From a virus (taxonomy: Duplodnaviria > Heunggongvirae > Uroviricota > Caudoviricetes): a stretch of 12,310 nt of DNA. The stretch's first letter is position 1, and each line of letters starts with the position of its first letter. The translations under genes were made by a program, and so were the position numbers. The notes below the pieces were generated by a model, which saw only the letters and a list, made by a program, of their open reading frames with translations, made no database searches and was not told the origin of the DNA. Below, piece by piece: positions 1-12,310 of this stretch. The stretch spans positions 1 to 12,310 of IMG/VR virus record IMGVR_UViG_2913192161_000002, one strand, 5' to 3'.

Positions 1-30
1 GCTTTACGCTGGGAATTTAGTGCCTGCATG
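1..30 (-). CDS. Endolysin (lambda R-like), first 10 codons only; gene runs off the window start
   Basis: Minus-strand ATG at 30-28, two nt after the holin stop, translates MQALNSQRKA, which resembles the lambda R N-terminus (..NNQRKAF..) as I recall it. Position directly downstream of the holin. Only 30 nt visible. Confidence 0.4.
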
Positions 31-32
31 AA

Positions 33-359
33 TTACTCCTTCGAGCTACCAAATTTGTTACCGATTACTCGCATTGCAGCCCCACGAATAGCATCGACAC
101 CGATCAGCCCAACGCCGCCACCAATGGCAACAGAAAGTGATTTAGGCCATCCGACATACTCAAGAGCGGATGCAAAAGTCAGCGTCAGAGCGCCACAGAG
201 TAGAATTTCGAGTGTTTTTCGCTTCCAGCCGCCACCACCGCCAAAATAGGCAATACGTAAACCAGCCATAACAATCGACATAATCACTGCGCCCAGCGGT
301 GTGTCTCCACGCCACCAGCTCTGGACCAACTCCAGCCAGGTATTTGGGTTATGAGGCAT
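33..359 (-). CDS. Holin (lambda S-like, glycine-rich transmembrane segments, charged C-terminal tail)
   Basis: 108 aa ORF with hydrophobic Gly-rich stretches (AYFGGGGGW, AIGGGVGLIGVD) and a basic C-terminus, sitting immediately upstream of the endolysin start. AGGTGAGAG ribosome-binding site before the ATG at 359. Architecture resembles lambda S. Confidence 0.8.
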   Translation of the reverse strand: MPHNPNTWLELVQSWWRGDTPLGAVIMSIVMAGLRIAYFGGGGGWKRKTLEILLCGALTLTFASALEYVGWPKSLSVAIGGGVGLIGVDAIRGAAMRVIGNKFGSSKE

Positions 360-510
360 TTGTAGTTATCTCTCACCTCGCTGATACAGCAGGTGCAAAT
401 TGAGGGAACATCATGTACCGCAAATCAGAAGCGGAAACGTCAAAGAAGCCGAGCCAATGGATAACTGCGGGATAGACCAGACTCAACGAATCCCCAGGCC
501 CAGAAACGAC

Positions 511-537
511 AAAACCCGCTCGACGGCGGGTTTAAGC
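511..537 (-). terminator. Rho-independent terminator, candidate tR' of the late leader transcript
   Basis: On the minus strand a GC-rich hairpin CCCGC(cgtcga)GCGGG is followed by TTTTGTCGTTT. It lies about 150 nt upstream of the holin start and downstream of the candidate late promoter. Confidence 0.55.
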
Positions 538-599
538 TGTGTGGCGAAGTAACCACTCTTAACACAGTAACGCAATTTTTGCGGACCGCGATAATGTTT

Positions 600-608
600 T
601 TTATACCA
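600..608 (-). promoter_or_regulatory. Candidate Q-dependent late promoter pR' (extended -10, TGgTATAAA)
   Basis: Minus strand reads TTTGGTATAAAAAAC, giving a TG-extended -10 hexamer TATAAA about 65-90 nt upstream of the terminator at 511-537. No good -35. Placement is by analogy to lambda pR'-qut-tR'. Confidence 0.3.
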
Positions 609-654
609 AAAAAAGGTATTTTATGGAAAAAAATCAAGACATAGCGAGCAAAGA

Positions 655-1524
655 GTGACTAAAACAACTTCTTTTCAGATCTTCTACGATGCAGAGGATA
701 ACGAATTAGCACAGCATAAAATTGATGCCAAAACATTAAGCATCTCCATAGGTTCGATGGCAGATTTAATATCAGCAGCTGATAAAAGACTTAATGACGG
801 CCAACAAACCGTTAAGTTAATGGTTACTAATCCAGCAGAAGCGGGATCACTCGGCGTATCCTATACCATGATGGAGCTTGTTCCTCATGCCGTCGACGTC
901 GCAAAAGTGATTGGCCTAACAGGGATAGCCGGGGCTGCTATTGGAGCTCCAGCATTATCACTAATCCGCCAACTGGGCAGCAAGAAAGTAATTTCGGTAA
1001 CAAAACGGGCAGGAACAGAAGAATCTGTTCTTGAACTTGAAGGGGAAGAAATTGTTTGCCATGACTCAGTGGCTAAGTTAGTAACAGATCCTGAAGTCCG
1101 TGATGCCCTTGTGAATGTAGTTCGTGCACCATTAGACGGCAAACAAGGTGCAGTATTTAAGGTGCTAAATGATGAAGGCGAAGAAGTCGTTCGTCTTGAA
1201 GGAAGTGAAACCGAAGAGATCAAACCGCTGCCTAGAGGTACACTACTTGAAAAAGAAGAGTCTGTAGAAGAAGTCAATGTTAGATTCGTACAGATCAACT
1301 TCGAGGGTACAAAGGGTTGGAGAATCGATTATTTAGGCGAGGAGCATGCTGTTACCTTTGAAGATCAGTTGTTTATACACCAAGTTCAAAATGGAATCAT
1401 CAGTTTTACAAAAGAAGATTTGTTTGTTGTTGAGCTAAAAACTATAAAAACTTTCACTGCGCGAAATGCCACAACCAAGTATGCTATAACCAAAGTAAAA
1501 CGAAAACGCCCTGCTGAGGCTTGA
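655..1524 (+). CDS. Hypothetical protein, 289 aa, with one glycine-zipper-like hydrophobic segment; first gene of a three-gene accessory cassette
   Basis: Long ORF opposite to the flanking phage late genes and visibly more AT-rich. Internal hydrophobic Gly-rich segment VIGLTGIAGAAIGAPALSLI, an acidic middle region and a basic C-terminal tail KVKRKRPAEA. Start is uncertain: GTG at 655 sits directly against AAAGAG, and the next in-frame ATG is at 757. No family recognised. Confidence 0.65.
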   Translation: MTKTTSFQIFYDAEDNELAQHKIDAKTLSISIGSMADLISAADKRLNDGQQTVKLMVTNPAEAGSLGVSYTMMELVPHAVDVAKVIGLTGIAGAAIGAPALSLIRQLGSKKVISVTKRAGTEESVLELEGEEIVCHDSVAKLVTDPEVRDALVNVVRAPLDGKQGAVFKVLNDEGEEVVRLEGSETEEIKPLPRGTLLEKEESVEEVNVRFVQINFEGTKGWRIDYLGEEHAVTFEDQLFIHQVQNGIISFTKEDLFVVELKTIKTFTARNATTKYAITKVKRKRPAEA

Positions 1525-1790
1525 CAAAAGTGACACTGAACATGCAGATAGCACAACTGATCTTCTGGATAGGGGTGATAATGATCATCCCTGCCTTTAG
1601 TCGTTTTTGCTATTCAGCGTCAGCCTTGCTTTGGCGTCGACTATTCCCTACAAAAGTCTTCGAATTCCGATATCACGATGAAGAATCCGGAGTGACCAAG
1701 ACGCTAGTAATAAAAGTTCCAAGTAAAAAGGGAAAAATGCTAACAACCCTCATTGAAGAGGCAATTGCGGAGAATTCAAAACGAAAATGA
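1521..1790 (+). CDS. Small membrane protein, up to 89 aa, one N-terminal transmembrane helix and a charged C-terminal tail
   Basis: ORF overlaps the upstream stop (TTGA at 1521-1524); alternative starts are GTG at 1530 and ATG at 1542. Hydrophobic segment IAQLIFWIGVIMIIPAF followed by a Lys/Glu-rich tail. Its stop overlaps the next start (ATGA at 1787-1790). Confidence 0.55.
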   Translation: MTKVTLNMQIAQLIFWIGVIMIIPAFSRFCYSASALLWRRLFPTKVFEFRYHDEESGVTKTLVIKVPSKKGKMLTTLIEEAIAENSKRK

Positions 1791-2209
1791 ATTCTCAAAC
1801 TAAAGGTCTAAGCACAGGAAAAGCTACCCTTTCAACTGGTGGTTGGGGAGCAATTCTAAGTGTTCTTGTTAGCGCGATTTTAACCGACCCTAATAGCGTG
1901 TGGCGAACTGTAGCCTACGCATTAGTACCGGGTGTTGCGGCAACTTTAACTTACGTCATGAATTGGTTTATTTCGAGGCATGGTTTCGAATCTCCAGAAG
2001 ACGCAGCCAAAAGAGCAAAATGCAAGCGTGATTTGGCTGAGATTGAGAAGCAGTTACGATCTGACCACTTAAGTCCTGAAATAAAATCAACATTGATGCA
2101 GGCTAAAGCAAGAACAATCGAAATTTTGGTATCAATCGGAAGGGAATCTATACTCGAAACATCTGCGCGTAACATTACACCATCAGAAACTGCCGATCCG
2201 CAAAGCTGA
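1787..2209 (+). CDS. Membrane protein, 140 aa, two predicted transmembrane helices and a charged helical C-terminal domain (holin-like topology)
   Basis: ATG at 1787 overlaps the preceding stop. Two hydrophobic segments (GGWGAILSVLVSAIL and VAYALVPGVAATLTYVMNWFI) followed by a Lys/Arg/Glu-rich region. No family recognised. Confidence 0.6.
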   Translation: MNSQTKGLSTGKATLSTGGWGAILSVLVSAILTDPNSVWRTVAYALVPGVAATLTYVMNWFISRHGFESPEDAAKRAKCKRDLAEIEKQLRSDHLSPEIKSTLMQAKARTIEILVSIGRESILETSARNITPSETADPQS

Positions 2210-2220
2210 GCGGCAGTTTC
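2186..2220. terminator. Perfect 10-bp inverted repeat stem-loop at the convergent junction of the cassette and Q
   Basis: GAAACTGCCG (2186-2195) and CGGCAGTTTC (2211-2220) are exact reverse complements with a 15-nt loop containing the stop of the 140 aa gene. Followed on the plus strand by TATTCT, a weak U-tract. Confidence 0.4.
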
Positions 2221-2232
2221 TATTCTGGTAGT

Positions 2233-2598
2233 CTATTGGTCCATTTCCAGACAAAGATCAAGCATTGAGAGACAGCCTTCAACAAAACCCTCAGCCATCT
2301 GTATCTCAATGCGTATTAGTTTCTCATCCTTTTTACGAGCTTTGGCGAGCTTTCTTTTAGAGATACCGTATAGGTAATGGGCAACAAGAAGCGAATGTTC
2401 GTCTGGCCTTTTTTGCTTTAGACGAGCAAGACAACCTTCAATAATTAATGCATCACTATCTGAACAAGCCTGACGTGTTTTGCTTGTATAGGGAAGAAGC
2501 CCCTTAAACCCAGCAGCTATAGGCGAATAGTCTACTCCTGAACTATCACTCGCCGCCCATGCACCCCAACGCTCAAGAATCATCTGAATATCACGCAT
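2233..2598 (-). CDS. Q: Late-gene antiterminator Q (DLP12 QuuD-like family)
   Basis: Translation MRDIQMILERWGAWAA... closely matches the N-terminus of E. coli QuuD as I recall it. Start placed at ATG 2598, preceded by GGGGAAAG; the ORF-track TTG start at 2613 adds 5 codons. Position is between rusA and the lysis genes. Confidence 0.85.
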   Translation of the reverse strand: MRDIQMILERWGAWAASDSSGVDYSPIAAGFKGLLPYTSKTRQACSDSDALIIEGCLARLKQKRPDEHSLLVAHYLYGISKRKLAKARKKDEKLIRIEIQMAEGFVEGCLSMLDLCLEMDQ

Positions 2599-2621
2599 CA
2601 ACTTTCCCCACAAAAATCAGG

Positions 2622-2720
2622 CTAGCACGCCAATTGCCAGCAAAAATCAATAAAACGATATAAGCGCAGGCGCACCCAGCGGCGGCGAAGACGTTCTGTC
2701 ATATAAGACTCAAACATCAT
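2622..2720 (-). CDS. Small ORF, 32 aa, ylcG-like
   Basis: Minus-strand ATG at 2720 overlaps the rusA stop (ATGA) and translates [23 protein letters not shown]... The Arg-rich RW.RLRLYRF core resembles what I recall of DLP12 YlcG, and it sits in the same rusA-Q slot. Below the ORF-track length cutoff. Confidence 0.4.
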
Positions 2721-3079
2721 TCATCTCCCAGTTCAGTGATGGTCAGCTCCAGCTTTCCACCCTTGGTAACGGGCATCTTCACAACGCGATAATCAACGAC
2801 CTGAGCATCATCCAGCCAGAAACCTGCTTTGGTGAGTGCGTCAAAAGCGGCCTTTTGCAGATTATCCAGGTCACGGCGACGGCGATCCGGCATGTGGCAC
2901 TCAATACGGATTTTCACTGGCATAGCCAGGCCGATATCCAGCATGGAGCCTTTGATGATTCGGGCGACGTTATCGCGGTATGCCTGCCCTTCTGCGCTGA
3001 TGTGCGTGCGCCCGCGATTATGGCGGTAGTAGCGGTTATTGCTCGGCGGCCAGGGTAGTGTGATGTAGTAAGTATTCAC
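2717..3079 (-). CDS. rusA: Holliday junction resolvase RusA
   Basis: 120 aa product [38 protein letters not shown]... is near-identical over its length to E. coli RusA from memory. GTG start overlaps the ybcO stop (GTGA). Confidence 0.95.
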
Positions 3080-3366
3080 GCCTTAATTACCCCCTCTTTC
3101 AGCCAGATAACCTGCGTTCTCGCCATACCTTCCAGCGCGCATTCTTTTGCATATCCAGCGTCAACAAAATGCGTGCGACGGTCGATCTCGTCGTGACAGG
3201 CAGAACATGCAATGGTGGCAATAAGGTCTGGCGGTTTAATACCGGTGCCGCACAATCCAGCTAGCCGGATATGTGCCAGTACAGACGTTTCAGGGTTGCC
3301 ATTACATACGCCAGGGATTCTTACCTGGCATTCCCGACCACGCGCTGCTTTTCTCAAATCAGCCAT
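3076..3366 (-). CDS. ybcO: YbcO-like DUF1364 protein (Cys-rich, putative nuclease)
   Basis: From the internal ATG at 3366 (AGGAGG ribosome-binding site upstream) the product [35 protein letters not shown]... matches DLP12 YbcO. The ORF-track start at 3405 is probably an over-extension. Confidence 0.85.
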
Positions 3367-3529
3367 GACTCCTCCTTGCTGCCAGTCGCAACCATTTTTT
3401 ATCAACCAGGCTGGCGGTATACCCGAGCAGTGTTGGTATTTCGGATGGTTTCAGCTCAGGCTTACGCTTACGACGATTTGGTACTCTGTAGATGTGTCCG
3501 TTCATGACACGAATAAGCGGTGTAGCCAT
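3359..3529 (-). CDS. ninE: NinE
   Basis: Hand translation of the minus strand gives a 56 aa [59 protein letters not shown], which matches lambda/DLP12 NinE. Its ATG overlaps the ybcN stop (TAATG) and its 3' end overlaps the ybcO start. Missing from the ORF track because of length. Confidence 0.8.
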   Translation of the reverse strand: MATPLIRVMNGHIYRVPNRRKRKPELKPSEIPTLLGYTASLVDKKWLRLAARRSHG

Positions 3530-3984
3530 TACGCCTCCTGCTTGTCGCGCAGCAGCTGGAACTCGCAGCTCTGCGGAATAGTCAGGTGGCAGCCAATATT
3601 CATCGCCCAGGCTTCAACCTTACACAGGAAGACATACATCTCTCCGGTATCAAGATCGGAGGTATGGCGTAACGACTGGATCGTAGTGATTTCGCCGGTT
3701 ACGACATCAACCAGGTCCTTGGTTTCATAACCGAGGTATGTGTGTTTGAGAGCATCTTTTACCCATGCTGCGGTAGCGAACGATTTCCCCCTGCTGATGA
3801 GGTATTCACTGATTTCGCTGTACCACATGTGGCTGAGTGCATTCTGGGAAAGACTGCGTTTCTCACGCCACGGTTTAAGCACCATGCGAAAGCATTTTCC
3901 GTCCTCCAGATAAGGCTGGATCTGCTGACCGATAGCGGTGAAGTTGCCGCGATGTAATTTGATGCCGTCTTGTGGGAGGTTCAC
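3529..3984 (-). CDS. ybcN: NinB/Orf-family protein (YbcN-like DNA base-flipping protein)
   Basis: 151 aa product [48 protein letters not shown]... is near-identical to DLP12 YbcN from memory and shares the RSLxQN core with lambda NinB. GTG start with a GGAGGT ribosome-binding site. Confidence 0.9.
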
Positions 3985-4495
3985 GCTTCACCTCCGCAGA
4001 GGTCAAACGTTGGATGCAAAAAATCGCAGGTGCATTTCTGCAACTGTGAAGGGAGAAGAGAGTTTGGATTGTGTGTGCGCATAAACGTCCCCGTTTAGCG
4101 CAGAAGTCACCGGAGGTGTTCAGGCTCCGATGACATGATTATGGCGAGTTGATTATGGAAAATCAATTGAAGATGAAATTCAACAATGCCCCATGGTGCT
4201 ATGGCGCTCAATTAATTATATAACTTCAGAGAAAACTGATAACCCATTGATGATCACATTAGCTCAGACTAAGAAGACTGACAACGGGGACGAACATGAA
4301 CAGCAACGCCTGACATAGGTAAATCTCAAAAGCGAATCATATAATCCTTACCCCATCACTCAGAGACATCGCATAATAACATTCATACCACTATATAACC
4401 TCCAAATAACAACAACAATTCATTGGTTGCATTAATATCAGCGTGTTCCGTTGTTCAGGAATAAAACTTTTTATTTAACAAACAAAGAGAGTTCA

Positions 4496-5173
4496 ATGAT
4501 GAGCAAAATTACAGGCGTGTTAGTTGATAGCCATATCTATGATATTAAAAATGATATGGAGAGTGGTTACTGTTTCCCTAACAGTTTGTTCCCAGGAGCA
4601 ACCTTCAAGATGGTCATTGATAATGACCCTATTAATAATGACAAGGTAAAATGGACCTGTAGCACTAATGCAGACAATAATGTTCTGGCGGTTAGCCAGG
4701 ATGGCACAGTAACTTTTCCGGGCGTAGATGAAAAGTGCGTTGGGAAGATTTTTGTCATTTTCGCCACTGATAAATCAACAAACAAATCTGCCGGCATCTA
4801 TGTTTTTATTGTGAAGCGTTTTTTCAAATACAGCATTGAACTTTATAACTCAGTTAAAGATATTTTACCGTGGATTGAAAACATGAACGGGAATTTTCCT
4901 GAGGCACGTGACATCTATAGTTACGATTATGATAACTATAGTGGACCGCATATTATCAATCGAGAAGTTAACGCAGGGCTTTACCAGGAATGGGGCACGT
5001 TATCTAATAGTGGATGGGACGCAAGTTGTGAGCTTGAGGGTATTTGTAGCATTTACGCTTTTGATAAAGACAATAATACTTATTATTGCCTGCGTGATTA
5101 TGGAGAAATAGAGTGTATTGATCGTTTTTGCGTCGCTCAGGCAGTTGCATCCTACGGAGAATCCATCGACTGA
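4496..5173 (+). CDS. Hypothetical cysteine-rich protein, 226 aa from ATG 4496, possible Ig-like N-terminal region; lone accessory gene
   Basis: Strongly AT-rich ORF opposite to the phage operon, flanked by about 0.5 kb and 0.28 kb of AT-rich non-coding DNA. AAAGAGAG ribosome-binding site before the tandem ATGs at 4496/4499. Eight Cys, many Asn/Asp/Tyr. The segment VKWTCSTNADNNVLAVSQDGTVTFPG resembles bacterial Ig-like (Big_2-type) strands. No clear signal peptide. Confidence 0.55.
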   Translation: MMSKITGVLVDSHIYDIKNDMESGYCFPNSLFPGATFKMVIDNDPINNDKVKWTCSTNADNNVLAVSQDGTVTFPGVDEKCVGKIFVIFATDKSTNKSAGIYVFIVKRFFKYSIELYNSVKDILPWIENMNGNFPEARDIYSYDYDNYSGPHIINREVNAGLYQEWGTLSNSGWDASCELEGICSIYAFDKDNNTYYCLRDYGEIECIDRFCVAQAVASYGESID

Positions 5174-5251
5174 TTGTGTTTTTTTCAACTATCATTTGCA
5201 TTATTACAGCGTAAAGATTCACTGAAATTATAAAATTTAACTTGCGCAAAA

Positions 5252-5281
5252 CCACCCGTTCAGCGGGTGGTTCTCATTTTT
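5252..5281. terminator. Bidirectional rho-independent terminator between the convergent 240 aa gene and the Bro-N gene
   Basis: 7-bp stem CCACCCG(ttcag)CGGGTGG followed by TTCTCATTTTT on the plus strand and by TTTTGCGC on the minus strand. Confidence 0.55.
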
Positions 5282-5452
5282 ATCCACTATGTATATGAAG
5301 CTTAAAAAAATAAACGGACTTAAGCGATCCTTTTTATATTGCTACAAACAATTAATTCTCGACACCTAATAACTAAAGCCCCGCCCCCATATACCGCCAA
5401 TACCCGTTTCATAACAAAATGCTGGTGACATTTCTCACCGGAAACTTTATTG

Positions 5453-6058
5453 CTACTGCTCAGAACGCAAATGCGGCAATACTCGGCTCCACTTATCATC
5501 CTGCCACGGCTGGAATCTTACATGTGCCGTTTCTCTGGCAAGGATTTCGCGCGCCTTATGTAGTATCTGGGGATATTCTTGCTCAATAGAAGTAAAGCGA
5601 CCGGCTTCGCGATGCTCCGCAACCTGAAGAAGTGGAGTAATATTCTGGCAGGCGGTTAACATCACATCCCCTGCTCGCCATAACCAGGCGAGTGTGCAAA
5701 GTTCGTTATCAGTGAATTGTTTTGTGATTGGGGATTGTTGAACTTCTCGATCGAGAATATCCAGAACCCAGCGGCGGAATTCTTTGGCTACAGGAGTGCG
5801 GGCGAACATAGCGATCAAATGGGCACCACGGAGGGAGAAAATGCGTATTGTTTTCTGGTAGTTCCCTGAGACACTCAAATTGAGGGTCTCAGTCATATCT
5901 GCCCTAAATTCATCGGAATTTCGATCGTAGATCTGAGTTACGGCATCAGATTTTTTATATCCGAGAGCTTGAGCAATCTCAACGGCAGTAAGCCAGATAC
6001 TGTTGTTGTGTTTAACAGGATGGAATTTTGTTTGATGAAAGACTAGTTGTGTGCTCAT
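5453..6058 (-). CDS. Bro-N/AntA-like domain protein (putative antirepressor-type regulator)
   Basis: 201 aa. The N-terminus LVFHQTKFHPVKHNNSIWLTAVEIAQALGYKKSDAVTQIYDRNSDEF fits the Bro-N/AntA pattern (F..F..V....W..A.D/EIA..LGY) from memory. The C-terminal domain is not recognised. Confidence 0.5.
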   Translation of the reverse strand: MSTQLVFHQTKFHPVKHNNSIWLTAVEIAQALGYKKSDAVTQIYDRNSDEFRADMTETLNLSVSGNYQKTIRIFSLRGAHLIAMFARTPVAKEFRRWVLDILDREVQQSPITKQFTDNELCTLAWLWRAGDVMLTACQNITPLLQVAEHREAGRFTSIEQEYPQILHKAREILARETAHVRFQPWQDDKWSRVLPHLRSEQ

Positions 6059-6211
6059 GATGATTACCTATAAATCAAGTTAACCACCACCGCTGACGCC
6101 AATCAGTTTGGTGGTGAGACATGTAGGGTTGGCGTAACCGGGGTAATCAACCGGCCCGACCGAAGTCGGCCCTACACGCCCCACCATAATTCAGATGTGC
6201 GTATGCTTACG

Positions 6212-6238
6212 ACAATAAAAAACACGCTCGCGGCGTGT
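6212..6238 (-). terminator. Rho-independent terminator downstream of ren (tR2-like position)
   Basis: On the minus strand a 6-bp stem ACACGC(cgcga)GCGTGT is followed by TTTTTTATTG, about 100 nt after the ren stop. Confidence 0.6.
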
Positions 6239-6333
6239 AGTAGTCGCGATTACCTTATCCGGGACGCCAATCCCGTGTGCCGATTTTGCGGCAACGCACA
6301 GAATATAGCGCCAGATATTAGTTATCGTCAACC

Positions 6334-6633
6334 TCACTGATTTCCTCCCCCCGCCGCATAAACAAATAAAACCCGCTTCATCGCGGCACTCTGGCGACAC
6401 TCCTTGAAAATCAGATTCGTGCTCACCTTTCCTTCCCGTTCTTCCCTGGTAGCGAACCGGTAATACACCGTTCGCCAGACCTTACCATCAATGACTAAGA
6501 TTCCTGCCCGCGCCATTTTAGCCGCAGCCTGATTTATGCTGGTTACTGTTGCGCCTGTTACCTCAGCAACGTCCTGCGCACAGAAGCTCTTATGCGTCCC
6601 CAGGTAATGAATAATTGCTTCTTTTCCCGTCAT
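6334..6633 (-). CDS. ren: Ren protein
   Basis: Product MTGKEAIIHYLGTHKSFCAQDVAEVTGATVTSINQAAAKMARAGILVIDGKVWRTVYYRFATREEREGK... matches lambda Ren from memory. Its ATG overlaps the P stop (ATGA). Confidence 0.9.
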   Translation of the reverse strand: MTGKEAIIHYLGTHKSFCAQDVAEVTGATVTSINQAAAKMARAGILVIDGKVWRTVYYRFATREEREGKVSTNLIFKECRQSAAMKRVLFVYAAGGGNQ

Positions 6634-7331
6634 ACACTGGCTCCTTTCAGTCCGAACTTAGCTTTAATTTCTGCGATCTTCGCCAGAGCCTGTGCACGAT
6701 TTAGAGGTCTACCGCCCATGACAGGAAGTTGTTTTACTGGTTCAGGTATAGCCTCACCACGGTTAATTCGCGCGGTCATACAGGCCAGTTCATCGGCAGC
6801 CTTGCGCCGTAATTCCGCATCAGTAAGCGCATTGGCCCGCATGTTCTGGTACAGGTTGGTAACCAGCCAGTAGTGCGCGTTTGATTTCCACGGATAAGAC
6901 TCTGCATCTGGATACAGGCCACGCTTCCGGCAATACTCATAAACCATATCAACCAGCTCGCTGACGTTTGGCAGCCCGGCGTTAACGGATGCTTCTTCCC
7001 GGCACCAGGCGACAAACTGCCCGGGTGATGGCAGGAATGGTCGATTCTGCCGACGGGCTACGCGCATTCCAGCGTTAACCTGTTCCATCGTGGTGATCCC
7101 ATTTTCCCGGAAAGCCAGAACCCACTGGCGGCGGATTTCGTTCAGTTCGTTCTGGTCACGGTTAGCCAGGCTCGCCGGGAAAGTTGCCAGTAACTGGCTG
7201 AACACACCATTGATAATCTGCGCTACCTGCTGTACCTGCGGCTTTTCGTCGTACTGTTCCGGCATGTTATTGGCGATCCGGCGCATCTGCTCACGGTCAA
7301 AATTAACCATCTGTGCGGCGATGTTTTTCAT
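6630..7331 (-). CDS. P: Replication protein P (DnaB helicase loader)
   Basis: 233 aa product MKNIAAQMVNFDREQMRRIANNMPEQYDEKPQVQQVAQIINGVF... is essentially lambda P from memory. Confidence 0.95.
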   Translation of the reverse strand: MKNIAAQMVNFDREQMRRIANNMPEQYDEKPQVQQVAQIINGVFSQLLATFPASLANRDQNELNEIRRQWVLAFRENGITTMEQVNAGMRVARRQNRPFLPSPGQFVAWCREEASVNAGLPNVSELVDMVYEYCRKRGLYPDAESYPWKSNAHYWLVTNLYQNMRANALTDAELRRKAADELACMTARINRGEAIPEPVKQLPVMGGRPLNRAQALAKIAEIKAKFGLKGASV

Positions 7332-8257
7332 AGCTCCACCCCGTAAATCCAGTCAGTGTTCGTCAGGTCGAGTTTTGGTTTTCCGGCTGTCACGCCAGCC
7401 TGTTGCTTGTTACGGTTGATTTCGAGTTGGGTCCACTTGTCGCGGAGTTTGGCCGGACTTAGCACGTTACCGGACCAGAAGTTGTCCTGGCATGCCCAGC
7501 GGAACAGCACGCACATGTCGCGGTGGTTACGTCCGTCACGTTCACGCATCAGGCGGATATCGTTAGCCCACCCTGCAAAATTCGGTTTTCTGGCTGATGG
7601 CGCGATGGTCTTCACCATGTCAAACATCCACTCTGCGGCGGTCAGGTCTTCTGCTGTCCCCCACTTGCTGCCGCTCTGAATCGCAGCATCCGGTTTCACC
7701 ACAGGAAGGTCGTTTTCTGGCTGGTCAGAGGATTCGCCAGAATTCTCGGACGAATAAGGTTTTATATTGTCTTTTGTTAGTTTGTCTTTTGTGTTTACCT
7801 GATTCGGGTAAACGTCTTTACCTGATTTGGGTAAACTTTTTTTACCTGATTCAGGTAAATTTACCTCTTTCAGGTAAACTTTATTTTTCTTACCTGATTC
7901 GGGTAATGTTGACCATTCACTGACCACATTATTAATGCCGGTATTCCGCCCGCTCTGAATAAAAATCCCACGCTTTACCAGAACACTTTTTGCAGCAGAA
8001 CACTTGTGCGGCAATATCCCGGTTAACTCGGAAAGTTGCTCGTTGCTCACCCAATCCATTTTTTTATTAAAGCCATATGTTTTGCGCATGACAGCCAGGA
8101 AGACCAGAAGCTGGTGCTGTGTTAATCCAGCCAGCATCACAGCTTCCAGCAACTCATTTGCAATGCGCGTATAACCATCATCGAGATCTGCCACGCGCGG
8201 CTCCTTTTGTGCCGCATCCGGCACTGGAAAATTGAATATCTCAGCAGTGTTTGCCAT
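7328..8257 (-). CDS. O: Replication initiator O (origin-binding protein)
   Basis: From the internal ATG at 8257 (GGGAGGA ribosome-binding site) the product MANTAEIFNFPVPDAAQKEPRVADLDDGYTRIANELLEA... aligns with the lambda O N-terminus (MTNTAKILNF...VADLDDGY...). The coding region contains the iteron array. The ORF-track start at 8347 adds 30 residues with no lambda counterpart. Confidence 0.9.
   Translation of the reverse strand: MANTAEIFNFPVPDAAQKEPRVADLDDGYTRIANELLEAVMLAGLTQHQLLVFLAVMRKTYGFNKKMDWVSNEQLSELTGILPHKCSAAKSVLVKRGIFIQSGRNTGINNVVSEWSTLPESGKKNKVYLKEVNLPESGKKSLPKSGKDVYPNQVNTKDKLTKDNIKPYSSENSGESSDQPENDLPVVKPDAAIQSGSKWGTAEDLTAAEWMFDMVKTIAPSARKPNFAGWANDIRLMRERDGRNHRDMCVLFRWACQDNFWSGNVLSPAKLRDKWTQLEINRNKQQAGVTAGKPKLDLTNTDWIYGVEL
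7755..7906. repeat. Replication origin: five 17-bp iterons (TTACCTGATTCGGGTAA-like) plus an adjacent AT-rich region, embedded in O
   Basis: Iterons at 7795-7811, 7818-7834, 7842-7858, 7861-7877 and 7890-7906, each an internal inverted repeat TTACC...GGTAA. AT-rich tract at about 7755-7794 lies on the side downstream of O transcription, the same layout as lambda ori. Confidence 0.85.
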
Positions 8258-8343
8258 AATTCCTCCCGCAATGAGTGTGTTACGATTTGCACCTGAAAGT
8301 CGGTTCTGTTCCCGCAGACCGACTTTCGCCATTTTTGAACCTG

Positions 8344-8889
8344 TCATATTGCCCCCAGCATGGTGGTGACCATCGCCATCAATGGACCAGCCAGATCCGG
8401 GTCCACTCGAAACATCGACACAATGCCTTCACTCATCTCCTTCAGTTTCTGGTGGCGTGGTGCGTTGAGAATGACAGCCTGTTTTGCCTCACTGAGTTCC
8501 TTTTCCATTTCAGCCAACCTAGCCATAAAGCTATCCTGCTCAACCAGGTAACCGCGATATTCCAGCGGTAGTACCGCCAGAATTGCCGGGGTCAGTTCAC
8601 GCACGTTATTTCGGTATTTTTCAGAATCGAATTTGTTATCGAGGAAGCGGAACAGCTTCTGGCGTGCACGGCTGACATCATCAGGGAAATCGATGGTGCC
8701 GCCGCCCTGCTCCCGATACTCATTCACAATGAGTGCGGCAACAACATCCTGATTATCTGCAGCCGACCAGGCGCGGACGGCATCACGGATTTTTTCGTGG
8801 CCTGGAGCTTGTTTTGTTTGAGAACGATTTATCACCGCAGTCGGGCTAAATCCGCTAGTCTGTTGGTATGTAAGTGGTTGCATAGTCAT
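8344..8889 (-). CDS. CII-like regulatory protein (YdaT-like family)
   Basis: 181 aa ORF in the cII position between cro-like and O. Motifs EYREQGGG and LTPAILAVLP resemble what I recall of Rac YdaT-type CII-like proteins. AAGG ribosome-binding site before the ATG at 8889. Confidence 0.5.
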   Translation of the reverse strand: MTMQPLTYQQTSGFSPTAVINRSQTKQAPGHEKIRDAVRAWSAADNQDVVAALIVNEYREQGGGTIDFPDDVSRARQKLFRFLDNKFDSEKYRNNVRELTPAILAVLPLEYRGYLVEQDSFMARLAEMEKELSEAKQAVILNAPRHQKLKEMSEGIVSMFRVDPDLAGPLMAMVTTMLGAI

Positions 8890-8913
8890 TGCCTTATCAG
8901 TTAACGCCGCAGT

Positions 8914-9141
8914 TTAGGCGGCAGAATTACTCGCGTTAAACAATGGTGCGAGGTCGGGACGAATATCTGCTGGTTTAATCTTTCCACCAGTGGCTGAGAC
9001 AATTTTCATTACATAGCGGGCATCAATTCCGCCACCGTGTAGCCAACGCCAAACAGTGGGTTGGGCTACACCGCATAGATCTGCCAGTCGTTTTTGACTA
9101 CCTGTAATACTGATTGCGAGTTGAATGGTTTGATTTGTCAT
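8914..9141 (-). CDS. cro: Cro-like HTH repressor (YdaS-like family)
   Basis: 75 aa from ATG 9141 (AGGA ribosome-binding site). HTH segment LADLCGVAQPTVWRWLHGG. First gene transcribed divergently from cI, downstream of the predicted PR. Confidence 0.7.
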   Translation of the reverse strand: MTNQTIQLAISITGSQKRLADLCGVAQPTVWRWLHGGGIDARYVMKIVSATGGKIKPADIRPDLAPLFNASNSAA

Positions 9142-9172
9142 TATCAATTCCTATTGGTATTGCAATGAATAA

Positions 9173-9242
9173 ATAATAGCAATGCGTATTAATCATAACA
9201 ATAGCAAAACGTGTTTTGACCATCAATACGCAAGCGTATAAA
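9173..9242. promoter_or_regulatory. OR region: three 16-bp operators (6-4-6 inverted repeats, arms AATAGC/AATACG) overlapping divergent PR and PRM candidates
   Basis: Operators read directly: 9175-9190 AATAGC-AATG-CGTATT, 9200-9215 AATAGC-AAAA-CGTGTT, 9225-9240 AATACG-CAAG-CGTATA, centres 25 bp apart. PR on the minus strand: -35 TTGTTA (9196-9201), 17-bp spacer, -10 TATTAT (9173-9178). PRM candidate on the plus strand: -35 TTGACC (9216-9221), -10 TATAAA (9237-9242), implying a near-leaderless cI mRNA. Confidence 0.6.
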
Positions 9243-9251
9243 TTAAAACTT

Positions 9252-9944
9252 ATGAAAAAAGAAACTCTTGCTGATCGCTTAAACCTAGCGATGGAACAAT
9301 CTGGAATGTCTCAAGGCGCTCTTGCAAAGGCGTCTGGCGTAGCTCAACCCACAATCTGGAGACTGACAAGCGGCAACGCGCGCGGCTCAACAAAAATTGT
9401 TGAAATAGCTAATGCATTGGGTGTTCGAACAGAGTGGCTCTCATCAGGCATAGGCCCGATGAGAAATGACGGTCAACAATTAGGGAAGCCTACTGCCAAC
9501 CATCCCAAATACTTCAAGATTGACGTTCTTGATATAGAAGTGAGTGCCGGGCCGGGAGTCATCAACCGTGAGTTTGTAGAAGTTCTACGCTCGGTTGAGT
9601 ACTCGTTTGACGATGCTCGTCACATGTTCGATGGCAGGAAGGCAGAAAATATCCGCATCATTAACGTACGCGGTGACAGCATGTCAGGAACGATCGAACC
9701 AGGTGATCTTCTGTTCGTTGATATCACTGTTAAATCTTTCGACGGTGATGGTATCTATGCGTTTCTGTATGACGACACCGCCCATGTAAAGCGCCTGCAA
9801 ATGATGAAGGATAAGCTGCTGGTTATCTCTGATAACAAGAGCTACTCACCGTGGGACCCGATCGAGAAAGACGAGATGAACCGCGTGTTCATCTTCGGGA
9901 AAGTCATCGGGAGCATGCCGCAGACATATAGAAAGCATGGGTAG
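9252..9944 (+). CDS. cI: CI-like prophage repressor (N-terminal HTH, C-terminal LexA-like S24 autopeptidase domain)
   Basis: From ATG 9252: HTH segment LAKASGVAQPTIWRLTSGN, an Ala-Gly cleavage-site candidate (SAGPG), and a C-terminal GDSM serine motif with VKRL lysine, as in LexA and lambda cI. The ORF-track TTG start at 9216 is rejected because it lies inside the operators. Confidence 0.9.
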   Translation: MKKETLADRLNLAMEQSGMSQGALAKASGVAQPTIWRLTSGNARGSTKIVEIANALGVRTEWLSSGIGPMRNDGQQLGKPTANHPKYFKIDVLDIEVSAGPGVINREFVEVLRSVEYSFDDARHMFDGRKAENIRIINVRGDSMSGTIEPGDLLFVDITVKSFDGDGIYAFLYDDTAHVKRLQMMKDKLLVISDNKSYSPWDPIEKDEMNRVFIFGKVIGSMPQTYRKHG

Positions 9945-10028
9945 AAATCAGAACAAAATTATGCACTTCGCTTTTCAGCTTACTGTAGTAAGGCAATAAA
10001 TTAGGCTTGACGTTAGCTATCAGGTGCA

Positions 10029-10043
10029 CAACAATAATTGTTG
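10029..10043. promoter_or_regulatory. Palindrome CAACAAT-A-ATTGTTG upstream of the metallopeptidase gene (candidate regulator-binding site)
   Basis: Perfect 7-bp inverted arms around one central base, about 30 nt upstream of the ATG at 10074. A TTGACG -35-like hexamer lies at 10007-10012. No clear -10 assigned. Confidence 0.3.
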
Positions 10044-10073
10044 AATAATAGGTTTTTTTAACTAGGTGATAAC

Positions 10074-11213
10074 ATGGCAGCGGTTGAATTTCAATTGTCT
10101 AGGAAGATGATTGATTGGATAGCAAATTCTCAAGGAGTTTCTATCGAAACTCTTGCTGACCAAGTCATGCCCAAAAAGATTAATAAATTTCTTAACGGAG
10201 TGGTAAGTAAATCCGCAGCAGAAAAACTGGCAAAAATTGGAGGAATCCCTTTCGGTTTTTTATTTCTTGAAACGCCACCAACTCCAGCCAAACCCAAGAT
10301 CCCTGACTTAAGGCAAGCTATAAATAGCCGTGAGTTAGGAAAAGATTTTTTTGATGTTTACTATGATATAGAATATAAACTTGAGTGGTACAAAGACTAT
10401 TTAAGAGAAAATGGTAATGATGATCCACTCGATTTTATTGGTAAATTTAAATTTAATAGAAAATTAAATTATAAGGTTGTTGCTACAGACATAGCAAACA
10501 CAATACATTTTGATATACAAAAAGAGATAAAAAATGTCACTTTTGAGAGCTATTTTTCTAAAGTGGCAAAACTAATAGAAGACACTGGCGTATTAGTTTT
10601 CAAGAATGGTGTTGTGGGTAATAATAATAAAAGAAAACTTGACACGCGAGAGTTTCGTGGTTTCTGTATATCTGATAGCGTTGCTCCGATCATTTTTGTA
10701 AATAGCTCGGACGCGTTATCTGCGCAGGTATTTACATTATTTCATGAGGTGGCTCATCTTTGGCTTGGAGTCGATGGAGTCTCTGGGTGGGACACAGAAA
10801 AAAACATAGAATCTTTTTGTAATAAAGTTGCTGCTGAAATCTTAATGCCTGATAATCTCTTCAAATCTTTCTGGCTTAATGCATCCAGCGATAATAATTA
10901 TTATCGAGTAAAAGAGGTTTCTAAGTTATTTAAGGTTAGTGATTTCGCTTGTGCAATCAAAGCGTTACAATTAGATTTGATAGAAAGAAACACTTTGGAG
11001 ATAATTAAAGATCAAGCTTACAATAAGCCCAAAAAAGAATCTAATGGTGGTTCTTTCTTTAACACATTACCTGTTCGTAACAGTCCAAAACTTACGAATA
11101 TAATAATTTCCAAAGCAATGTCTCAACAATTACCATTAAGGGAAGCAGGCGTACTGCTAAATGTAAAAGCAGATACAGTTGTTGAATTTTATAAAAAACG
11201 AGAATCTCTATGA
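10074..11213 (+). CDS. HTH-domain plus ImmA/IrrE-family zinc metallopeptidase (HEXXH)
   Basis: 379 aa. N-terminal region has an XRE-like HTH pattern (SIETLADQV...KKINKFLNG). Central HEVAH motif in the context FTLFHEVAHLWLG is typical of ImmA/IrrE (Peptidase M78) proteins. AGGTGA ribosome-binding site. Very AT-rich compared with cI. The stop overlaps the next start (ATGA). Confidence 0.75.
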   Translation: MAAVEFQLSRKMIDWIANSQGVSIETLADQVMPKKINKFLNGVVSKSAAEKLAKIGGIPFGFLFLETPPTPAKPKIPDLRQAINSRELGKDFFDVYYDIEYKLEWYKDYLRENGNDDPLDFIGKFKFNRKLNYKVVATDIANTIHFDIQKEIKNVTFESYFSKVAKLIEDTGVLVFKNGVVGNNNKRKLDTREFRGFCISDSVAPIIFVNSSDALSAQVFTLFHEVAHLWLGVDGVSGWDTEKNIESFCNKVAAEILMPDNLFKSFWLNASSDNNYYRVKEVSKLFKVSDFACAIKALQLDLIERNTLEIIKDQAYNKPKKESNGGSFFNTLPVRNSPKLTNIIISKAMSQQLPLREAGVLLNVKADTVVEFYKKRESL

Positions 11214-11722
11214 TTCATAATGGAAAATTCTTAATTGATAGTAATGTCTTCATAGAGGCAAAAAACTTTGCATATAACTTCAATTATTGCAAAATATTTT
11301 GGGATTTTCTTCTCGCTTTACACATGAATGGTCTGATTTATAGCATTAATGCTGTAAAAAAAGAACTATGTGCAAAAGATGATCCATTGTGTAAATGGAT
11401 TAAAGAAGAGTTACCATCATCATTCTTCGAAGATGAGCATAGTTCAATAGAAAATTATGCAAAGTTAATAAATTGGTCAACTAAATTAGATGTTACCGAA
11501 AAGGCAAAGTTTGATTTTGCAAGCCATGAAAAAGCAGATGCTTTTTTAATAGCCCATGCGATGACACATGGATATACTATTATTACCCATGAGAAACCAT
11601 CCGGTGGCAAACCTAAAAAAAGAATAATGATCCCGGATGCTGCTGCTTCTCACGGCGTTAAGACATTAACACTATATGAATTTCTTCCAAGATACGCTAG
11701 TCATAATTTTTCTTTGAAATAA
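11210..11722 (+). CDS. PIN-like nuclease-fold protein (DUF4411-like)
   Basis: 170 aa, translationally coupled to the upstream metallopeptidase gene. The N-terminal FLIDSNVFIEA matches the first PIN beta-strand with its conserved Asp, and further acidic residues follow. From memory, DUF4411 proteins typically pair with HTH/ImmA-type partners. Confidence 0.6.
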   Translation: MIHNGKFLIDSNVFIEAKNFAYNFNYCKIFWDFLLALHMNGLIYSINAVKKELCAKDDPLCKWIKEELPSSFFEDEHSSIENYAKLINWSTKLDVTEKAKFDFASHEKADAFLIAHAMTHGYTIITHEKPSGGKPKKRIMIPDAAASHGVKTLTLYEFLPRYASHNFSLK

Positions 11723-11727
11723 AACGT

Positions 11728-11755
11728 CCCGGCCACCGTGCCGGGTTTTCTTTTG
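11728..11755 (+). terminator. Rho-independent terminator after the metallopeptidase/PIN pair
   Basis: CCCGGC(caccgt)GCCGGG hairpin followed by TTTTCTTTTG, 6 nt after the stop at 11722. Confidence 0.7.
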
Positions 11756-11883
11756 TCCCCTCCCCTCATCACACAAACCGTTCGAAAAACCACCACAACC
11801 TCCCTTCAGTTATCGCTATGCGATGCAAGTCACAAAATTAATTCTTTTTGCTATCAAACAGTTAATATCAAAACACATCAATC

Positions 11884-11926
11884 AATAGCAATAAGTATTG
11901 ATACCACCAATAGCAATAGCTATTAT
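11884..11926 (+). promoter_or_regulatory. PL/OL-like early promoter with two operators of the same 6-4-6 type as OR
   Basis: -35 TTGATA (11898-11903), 17-bp spacer, -10 TATTAT (11921-11926). Operators AATAGC-AATA-GCTATT (11909-11924) and AATAGC-AATA-AGTATT (11884-11899), centres 25 bp apart. The operator/-10 overlap mirrors PR. Confidence 0.55.
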
Positions 11927-12119
11927 TACCATGTCGCAACAACACAACGATACGGCAACCACCTGATTCACCGTTGCGATGACCGCTTAGATCCGCAGCT
12001 TGAATTTCGGCAGGCTCCGGGGAGTGCGAGGGGTGAAACGGACGCGTGAACGTCGGTGTGACCAGCTGAAATCAACTCAACACCTCATACCTCAGTCGCT
12101 TCAACGAGGCGGCTTAGTT

Positions 12120-12310
12120 ATGACAACCGGCGGCCATCCACCGCCTGAATACGCGCAGAAGTCTCTATATGTTCAGCAGCCCAGCTTACGGGCAGGAGTT
12201 TTTATGGTTCATCAACATTACGGAACGCAGACCGTTAATCGCGGCGCGGTCATGCCAGGAATGCTGGTCAAACACAAAGATGGTACCTGTGTAAATAGAC
12301 CCGTTTTAGT
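12120..12310 (+). CDS. Hypothetical protein, 5' partial (first 63 codons); first ORF downstream of PL, in the N position but not N-like
   Basis: ATG at 12120 directly follows an in-frame TAG, with GAGG about 11 nt upstream. The frame stays open to the window end (MTTGGHPPPEYAQKSLYVQQPSLRAG...). Codon usage looks enterobacterial. No arginine-rich motif. Not in the ORF track because no stop is reached. Confidence 0.3.
   Translation, partial: MTTGGHPPPEYAQKSLYVQQPSLRAGVFMVHQHYGTQTVNRGAVMPGMLVKHKDGTCVNRPVL

Follow-up and report, generated by a model that had tools for sequence, protein, structure and literature searches.

A Stand-Alone Invasin/Intimin-Type Head Protein Predicted From a Cargo Gene in the nin Region of an Escherichia Lambdoid Prophage

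Introduction

Among extracellular receptor-binding modules, the head of invasin and intimin is a textbook example, and both proteins are inverse autotransporter adhesins. In this study, we describe a solitary gene whose product is predicted to correspond to this head alone. The gene (positions 4496–5173, + strand) lies in a stretch of 12,310 nucleotides from a virus of the Caudoviricetes (IMG/VR record IMGVR_UViG_2913192161_000002, positions 1 to 12,310), which is called the window below and comprises the immunity, replication and nin region of a lambdoid, DLP12-like prophage, with the early-right operon on the − strand. A preliminary description of this DNA had presented the gene as a lone, AT-rich, oppositely oriented accessory gene, and this holds: the + strand open reading frame (ORF) is antisense to the operon, low in GC and followed by its own terminator.

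Invasin of Yersinia pseudotuberculosis, whose D4-D5 head (PDB 1cwv) is homologous to the protein described here, is a 986-amino-acid (aa) outer-membrane protein with a signal peptide, a β-barrel and the D1–D3 spacers, whereas our protein is the head alone, lacks the disulfide of the C-type-lectin-like domain (CTLD) and has an extra hypervariable hairpin in the long-loop region. The C-terminal fragment of intimin (PDB 1f00/1f02), which is the Tir-binding head of enteropathogenic and enterohaemorrhagic Escherichia coli (EPEC and EHEC), is exported, anchored and encoded by the locus of enterocyte effacement, and it binds an injected receptor. In contrast, the present protein is signal-less and is encoded by a solitary gene on mobile elements. 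It has the C-terminal immunoglobulin-like (Ig-like) plus C-type-lectin-like head of the inverse autotransporters; it is not an inverse autotransporter as these are defined, because the signal peptide, the barrel and the disulfide are absent.

Barrel-only and split-passenger variants were described in a survey of the intimin/invasin family in 2010 (PMC3008723), and no signal-less stand-alone heads are described in the searched passages of that survey. Nor did we find a description of a conserved mobile family that keeps only the invasin/intimin head, without export signal, anchor or disulfide. What is new here is an adhesin head separated from its export machinery and turned into mobile, polymorphic cargo.

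Two other systems invite comparison. The variable C-type-lectin-fold proteins of diversity-generating retroelements, such as Mtd of Bordetella phage, are a phage-borne fold with variable C-terminal loops, and the likeness to them is one of kind only. The long-loop face of C-type-lectin-like folds is the ligand-binding site in other proteins. The E. coli cargo of the same prophage slot (emrE, ybcK, ybcL and ybcM of DLP12; the HEPN pair of EHEC) shares the position between the replication/ren genes and ylcH-ybcN, whereas its proteins are unrelated to ours and none has an adhesin-head fold.

Results

Domain Architecture and Fold

The gene and the features that surround it are as follows.

4168–5407, no strand: cargo-specific DNA between borders shared with E. 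coli (E. coli matches stop at 4167 and resume at 5408)
4358–4495, +: upstream region of about 140 bp that moves with the gene in a six-context alignment, presumed to hold its own promoter
4485–4492, +: likely ribosome-binding site AAAGAGAG, read from the sequence
4496–5173, +: coding sequence of the 225-aa protein (alternative ATG at 4499, 224 aa; stop TGA at 5171–5173)
4496–4825, +: Ig-like domain, residues ~1–110, equivalent to invasin D4 (profile, AlphaFold2, Pfam)
4826–5170, +: C-type-lectin-like domain, residues ~111–225, equivalent to invasin D5
5250–5272, +: hairpin terminator AACCACCCG-TTCA-CGGGTGGTT plus CTCATTTTT (−16.5 kcal/mol, z −3.8)

The profile and the predicted structure indicate that the protein is a free-standing D4-D5 head of the inverse-autotransporter type, with the Ig-like domain packed against the C-type-lectin-like domain. 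A family profile matched invasin (1cwv, residues 304–394) with an E value of 7.9e-7, and the AlphaFold2 (AF2) model consisted of two soluble domains, the N-terminal one a β-sandwich with a predicted local distance difference test score (pLDDT) of 82–96. The Ig-like stretch that had been noticed near the N-terminus is thus borne out. The closest structures were two heads, that of invasin, which binds integrin, and that of intimin, which binds Tir.

The core of the lectin-like domain is conserved (REVNAGLYQEWG, GW and AQAVASYG), and three hypervariable loops are found in it (residues ~141–152, 173–183 and 194–213). The EPN/QPD and WND motifs for Ca2+ and sugar binding were absent when the 225-aa sequence was read directly. 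The earlier proposal of a lectin-like factor therefore stands for the fold and fails for the motifs: like invasin and intimin, the protein has the fold alone and, lacking the sugar-binding motifs, does not qualify as a true C-type lectin. In this model, the protein is a binding module of two domains that bears no catalytic motifs or export parts and combines a conserved scaffold with a variable face.

Profile and structure searches had been proposed in the preliminary description, and they gave a sub-threshold match to Invasin_D4 and the invasin/intimin head fold. The Pfam match (PF21764) of the window protein scored 17.9 bits (E 0.0044) against a gathering threshold of 27 bits, and most homologues carry a precomputed match to PF21764. 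Scans of the protein against PHROGs, NCBIfam and PADLOC assigned it to no family, and the viral structure library BFVD gave matches to single Ig domains only, with no full-length match.

Distribution of the Family

Searching a collection of 5.8 billion proteins retrieved 24 homologues at 43–98% identity, most of them of 218–233 aa and all named "hypothetical". Wherever a source is named, it is Escherichia, in most cases unclassified Escherichia spp. or E. ruysiae. More than 20 clusters, down to 43% identity, agree in length, start and stop. When 1.84 billion representatives were searched exhaustively with a profile, the family yielded no more than two full-length clusters; the next matches were the C-terminal ends of inverse autotransporters (900–3,100 aa) and a few short relatives. 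Identical copies of the protein occur on IMG/VR prophage contigs and a 98% identical copy in Escherichia sp. E1V33; because of these copies, the host of the prophage is considered to be a cryptic-clade Escherichia.

The gene was absent from 5,426 complete E. coli genomes by both megablast and distant blastn, which matched the slot borders alone, and no match was obtained when the protein was compared by tblastn with 50,697 phage records and 72,556 plasmids. The family is found almost only in cryptic-clade Escherichia and distinguishes these from E. coli proper.

Gene Start and Expression Signals

The mechanically called ORF (4451–5173, +) opens with a TTG at 4451, is antisense to the − strand early-right operon and would give the 240-aa product first reported. 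The true start is ATG 4496 or 4499, because all homologues begin M(M)SKITGV and AAAGAGAG lies 3–6 nt upstream, so that the length is revised to 225 or 224 aa. This ribosome-binding site is kept in the prophage and chromosomal copies and reads GAGAG in the island copy. Judged from sequence comparison, the gene is real and intact, and it is more than a chance ORF because it has 24 homologues and its N-terminal half evolves with a ratio of nonsynonymous to synonymous substitution rates (dN/dS) of 0.12–0.25.

Homology to the chromosomal relic copy described below begins at 4358. The upstream region that starts there contains a TATAAT-like box (CATAAT at 4372–4377; TATAAT in the related loci L001, L007 and L008; TATAAC in the plasmid copy) and further conserved A/T blocks. 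Downstream of the gene, the hairpin stem is followed on the + strand by five U (CTCATTTTT), whereas on the − strand it is followed by UUUU and then GCGC, below the scan threshold. The terminator, which had been called bidirectional, is therefore strong on the + strand and weak at most on the other, and for early-right transcripts the hairpin is at best a weak stop. It is kept in the prophage and chromosomal-relic copies and not in the island or plasmid copies.

A Variable Cargo Slot

The two borders of the insert are formed by the following genes, the first of which overlaps the start of ybcN.

3981–4082, −: ylcH-like ORF, 33 aa; left border of the variable slot
5453–6058, −: antirepressor-like gene, 201 aa, Bro-N plus P22AR_C (Pfam); right border of the slot

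The GC content is 0.35–0.40 over approximately 4200–5400, compared with 0.49–0.55 in the flanking phage genes, and the core of the insert (4358–5353) has zero matches in the complete E. coli genomes, distant blastn included. The DNA block with the ylcH-like ORF matches 2,778 of these 5,426 genomes; the ORF itself is found at 91–97% nucleotide identity in about half of them, directly upstream of ybcN and labelled "hypothetical protein". It corresponds to ylcH of DLP12. The gene had been described as flanked by long AT-rich non-coding stretches, and the flanks are indeed AT-rich; the upstream one is non-coding only in part, since its first ~100 bases encode this ORF, and the true upstream intergenic stretch is 4083–4495. 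Likewise, the location that had been described as an interruption of the ren-to-nin operon is right for the slot, whereas the strict neighbours are the antirepressor-like gene and ylcH-ybcN rather than ren and ninB.

These borders are common to thousands of E. coli prophages that hold other genes between them, and the contents differ in every sampled E. coli prophage sharing both:

K-12: emrE-ylcJ-ybcK-ybcL-ybcM
O157: emrE-ybcK
EHEC: HEPN-domain pair
Other E. coli prophages: alpha/beta hydrolase with IS66; TagO-like genes; hypothetical genes

By the operational definition of a phage moron, or lysogenic-conversion cargo, the gene qualifies in full, with a promoter of its own presumed, because it is a discrete insert of deviant GC and opposite orientation with its own terminator, and related prophages hold other cargo in its place.

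Genomic Contexts and Paralogs

In three related prophages (L003, L004 and L014), the gene occupies the same place, between the antirepressor-like gene, which is also present in them, and ylcH-ybcN. Elsewhere the family member is likewise always a solitary gene, in prophages, a decayed DLP12-type relic, an island and a small Rop-type plasmid. A copy with 74% identity, found in E. ruysiae and other cryptic clades, is placed between ybcH and emrE and adjoins a tRNA-Arg(TCT), which we take to be argU, the attachment site of DLP12. In this copy, 79 bp from the 3′ side of ybcN are joined directly to the cassette, and the arrangement indicates that the chromosomal locus is a decayed DLP12-type prophage of which only emrE and the target-family gene are left. 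Two versions of the relic copy differ with a dN/dS of 0.22.

More distant members are located beside fliE in E. whittamii, on a 6.5-kb Rop plasmid and on an island that also encodes three toxin-antitoxin pairs, an omptin and autotransporters. No neighbour gene is conserved across these contexts, including those for the 784-aa protein of the island and the 81-aa and 731-aa proteins of the plasmid. Rop-type plasmid contigs of Escherichia sp. (L010–L013, 6.5–8.9 kb) carry a 52% identical member. The same plasmid encodes the 731-aa protein, a C-terminal segment of which is GH19 lysozyme/chitinase-like; next to its gene come a DUF4087 gene and two small genes, and this set looks like a bacteriocin operon with immunity genes.

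Paralogs are frequent, with four in Escherichia sp. E1V33 and three in E. whittamii. Prophage contigs with the 100% identical copy also hold a second paralog ~12 kb away, between xis/int and exo-bet-gam (233 aa, 42–44% identity, one Cys, no signal peptide; L040 2400–3502, IMGVR_UViG_2913128013_000003). This paralog lies on a segment of ~1.1 kb bounded by inverted repeats (34 nt at 100% and 28 nt at 96%), and the segment is inverted relative to its flanks in one contig when this is compared with six others (L028, L038 and L041–L044 among the compared contigs). It could be an invertible gene cassette or the product of a rare recombination event. A transposon-like cassette, to which these repeats had pointed, was rejected for the window gene, which has none.

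In L037 (1695–11190, IMGVR_UViG_2917891409_000001), the nin-slot cassette is tandemly duplicated, which may be an assembly artefact. One copy (3538–4215) is intact, shows 82% identity and bears another allele of the lectin domain; the second (6001–6676), at 98% identity, is one base longer and possibly frameshifted near its end.

Patterns of Sequence Evolution

Pairwise dN/dS was 0.12–0.25 in the Ig half, 0.3–0.5 in the lectin-like core and 0.3–0.5 over the whole coding sequence. In unbiased 20-codon windows, the pooled ratio of nonsynonymous to synonymous polymorphism (pN/pS) was 0.06–0.53 over residues 1–110 and 0.57–1.05 from residue 111 on. These ratios indicate that the Ig half is under purifying selection.

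Two prophages that are 97–99% identical over 2.8 kb differ at 68 sites of the coding sequence, nearly all of which fall within nt 285–684. Because the changes are confined to the lectin-like half, include synonymous ones and show no adenine bias, they point to allele replacement by recombination rather than local hypermutation. Together with the elevated ratios in the lectin-like half and its loops, the multiple paralogs and the tandem duplication with differing alleles, this replacement gives the family a pattern that resembles an arms race. The gene was also considered as a target of a diversity-generating retroelement, and this was rejected: alongside the missing adenine bias, the 12.3-kb window contains neither a template repeat of the 3′ part of the gene nor a reverse-transcriptase ORF, in contrast to such systems, and the alleles differ by the recombination-like changes just described. 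We also discarded the idea that the gene serves a large adhesin gene nearby as a silent donor cassette, since the large adhesins keep a Cys pair that is missing from this family.

Cysteines, Export and Cellular Location

The 225-aa form has eight Cys, at residues 26, 55, 81, 178, 184, 199, 207 and 212, and the C-x8-C-x4-C arrangement noted earlier (C199, C207, C212) can be read directly from this allele. Within the family, C81 is invariant and C184 nearly so; C199, C207 and C212 are limited to the closest alleles, and in the 233-aa paralog only one Cys is present.

The family was aligned with 11 exported or anchored relatives, comprising large adhesins and short proteins with clear signal peptides. 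As aligned, the helix-Cys and C-terminal-Cys columns are occupied in nine of these, and the remaining two have the same Cys slightly offset. In the target family this canonical lectin-domain disulfide pair is missing, and the two positions are taken by W126-I-E and AQAVASYG. The pair is equally absent from the other stand-alone relatives without a signal, which include one from Citrobacter amalonaticus.

By inspection of the sequence, the N-terminus (MMSKITGVLVDSH) shows no hydrophobic core longer than six residues and no signal peptide, lipobox or twin-arginine motif, which agrees with the earlier remark that no obvious Sec signal is present; the in-frame upstream extension (MFRNKTFYLTNKESS) is likewise not hydrophobic. 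The polypeptide opens with strand A of the Ig domain, and its start coincides exactly with that of invasin D4. An IAT_beta β-barrel translocator and a LysM/periplasmic part are absent from the 225 aa, for which Pfam gives the weak Invasin_D4 match only.

A cytoplasmic location, one of those first suggested, is plausible because the disulfide pair kept by exported relatives is absent; the loss of this pair, together with the mostly unconserved Cys of the family, would favour a reducing compartment. Judged from these sequence features, the protein probably folds and stays in the cytoplasm. The other location suggested, that of a factor injected by type III secretion, finds no support in the model, in which the first residues form Ig strand A (residues 5–10, pLDDT 88) rather than a disordered signal.

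Discussion

Taken together, we consider the chances about even that the gene is a horizontally mobile moron whose product is a soluble cytoplasmic adhesin-head binder made in the lysogen. In the proposed mechanism, an AT-rich promoter belonging to the gene itself would drive its transcription in the lysogen, antisense to the early operon of the phage, from which the hairpin terminator would insulate it. Remaining soluble in the cytoplasm, the protein would act by nothing more than stoichiometric binding: the hypervariable long-loop face of its lectin-like domain would contact a variable partner, and the Ig domain would serve as scaffold. Such binding would most likely benefit the host or the mobile element when either is in conflict with other elements or other bacteria. 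This conflict role, possibly in exclusion or immunity, is put forward tentatively; the protein might, for example, tie up a component of a superinfecting phage or disarm a toxin that enters the cell. Among the functions considered, the conflict role is favoured because the slot elsewhere carries toxin- or defence-type cargo, the window has two further + strand cargo units, and the family shows polymorphism and paralogy. On a wider and still more speculative view, stand-alone signal-less invasin-head proteins might form a new class of intracellular hypervariable recognition proteins on prophages, plasmids and islands, in which an adhesin tip is re-used inside the cell to bind and block invading phage components or toxins. 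Repertoires would then arise through paralogy, through the swapping of alleles and, in the case of one paralog, through DNA inversion of the entire cassette. If the protein works intracellularly, an adhesin fold of the cell surface has been turned into a binder that acts within the cell, and a single-gene function of a new type would be added to those of prophage cargo slots.

Several observations weigh against a conserved cytoplasmic binder with a role in conflict. The promoter scan found no strong + strand sigma-70 promoter upstream of the gene, and the AF2 structure is based on a shallow alignment of 22 sequences. Five of the Cys of this allele lie in its last 50 residues, which would be better suited to an oxidising compartment than to the cytoplasm. 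The dN/dS of ~1–2 in the three loops comes from loops picked after viewing the alignment, and the unbiased windows peak at only ~1; the loop variability fits diversifying selection, and relaxed constraint would give the same elevation. PADLOC-DB 2.0 assigned no family to the protein at E values up to 0.01, and the case for a conflict role, made from context and evolutionary pattern, is circumstantial. Some members have decayed, namely the E. whittamii chromosomal relic copy (L026 6001–6672, stop at W166), an E1V33 paralog (L029 6001–6637, frameshift) and a copy truncated after about residue 111 (L030 6001–6330).

Next in rank after the conflict role comes a host-directed factor, in which the soluble head would be freed by prophage or plasmid lysis and would bind a eukaryotic receptor (integrin) or a surface glycan to modulate colonisation. 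The closest structures are heads that bind integrin and Tir, prophages and bacteriocin-type plasmids can release cytoplasmic proteins by lysis, and variability concentrated in the binding domain resembles that of intimin subtypes. However, the protein has no export signal and has lost the disulfide that exported heads keep, the relic, fliE-side and island copies have no lysis function nearby, the segment aligned with the integrin-contact loop of invasin is conserved rather than variable, and the hosts are mostly environmental cryptic-clade Escherichia, so that we regard this as improbable; if it were correct, the protein would be a new kind of soluble, phage-delivered adhesin mimic. Slightly further down the ranking, and also improbable, is an orphan immunity protein: it would neutralise the toxin domain, active in the cytoplasm, of a polymorphic toxin delivered by competitors (bacteriocin, contact-dependent or type VI), and the paralogs would build up as a repertoire. 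A signal-less, polymorphic and solitary protein with multiple divergent paralogs per genome on islands, plasmids and prophages would suit such a role, and one plasmid copy adjoins the 731-aa protein with the GH19 lysozyme-like C-terminus. Yet no cognate toxin gene adjoins any copy, and the plasmid gene is divergent from and upstream of the bacteriocin-like operon, which has small downstream genes of its own. We know of no described immunity family with this fold, which also counts against the idea.

The three remaining explanations are unlikely. If the gene were no more than a decaying, non-functional 3′ piece of an inverse-autotransporter gene that the phage carries along, this would agree with its homology to the C-terminal end of large adhesins, with the pseudogene copies and with the absence of a strong promoter from the sigma-70 scan. 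This explanation is nevertheless very unlikely in view of the length, start and stop kept across clusters, the purifying selection indicated for the Ig half, and the gene's own ribosome-binding site and terminator; moreover, the gene is not a recent adhesin fragment, because identity to invasin is only ~20% and the family has specific changes, namely the lost disulfide and an inserted hairpin. Slightly less credible still is a virion-associated accessory protein, that is, an Ig-like decoration or host-range module assembled in the cytoplasm. Phage particles commonly bear Ig-like domains, weak fold matches to capsid and tail Ig domains were seen, and cytoplasmic folding without a disulfide would fit. 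The gene, however, is in the early region, antisense and far from the late operon, copies occur on a plasmid, an island and relics without structural genes, and neither the viral structure library nor the 50,697 phage records gave a full-length match. The metal-binding protein that had been proposed from the C-x8-C-x4-C of this allele is the least probable of all, because the three Cys of the cluster are not conserved in the family, in which C81 is the sole invariant one and a paralog has a single Cys.

Other Features of the Window

The remaining genes that define the prophage region are as follows.

9216–9944, +: cI-like repressor
8914–9147, −: cro-like gene
8344–8889, −: YdaT-family gene occupying the cII position; the assignment follows the matching 179-aa gene of L004 and L014 and E. 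coli annotation
7328–8347, −: O gene with iterons
6630–7331, −: P gene
6334–6633, −: 99-aa gene in the ren position
3529–3984, −: ybcN homologue, NinB-like, 151 aa (Pfam NinB, E 6.5e-5; E. coli prophage annotation)
2233–2613, −: Q antiterminator

The ybcN homologue is the first conserved nin-region gene beyond the slot and is followed by ybcO and rusA. Just upstream of the antirepressor-like gene, two RNAs were recognised by Rfam, a C4 antisense RNA at 6107–6191 (−, 74 bits) and the Hfq-binding small RNA IsrK at 6217–6293 (−, 61 bits), which suggests an RNA-controlled antirepressor module of the P1/Gifsy type adjoining the target gene.

Three + strand genes between the Q antiterminator and a holin-like gene (655–2209) form a cargo unit in the classic post-Q slot. 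The first (655–1524, +, 289 aa) matches the PADLOC candidate defence family PDC-S42 (E 8.8e-33), and the other two had no family match in the Pfam and PADLOC scans of the window proteins. Downstream of the cI-like repressor, in the position of lambda rexAB, is an AT-rich gene pair (10074–11722, +, GC ~0.30) encoding a 379-aa ImmA/IrrE-type M78 peptidase, with weak PADLOC matches to capP/RmrA, and a 170-aa DUF4411 protein. Within the O gene, five direct repeats of ~19–22 nt (TTTACCTGATTCGGGTAAA-like, 7790–7906) are the expected origin iterons.

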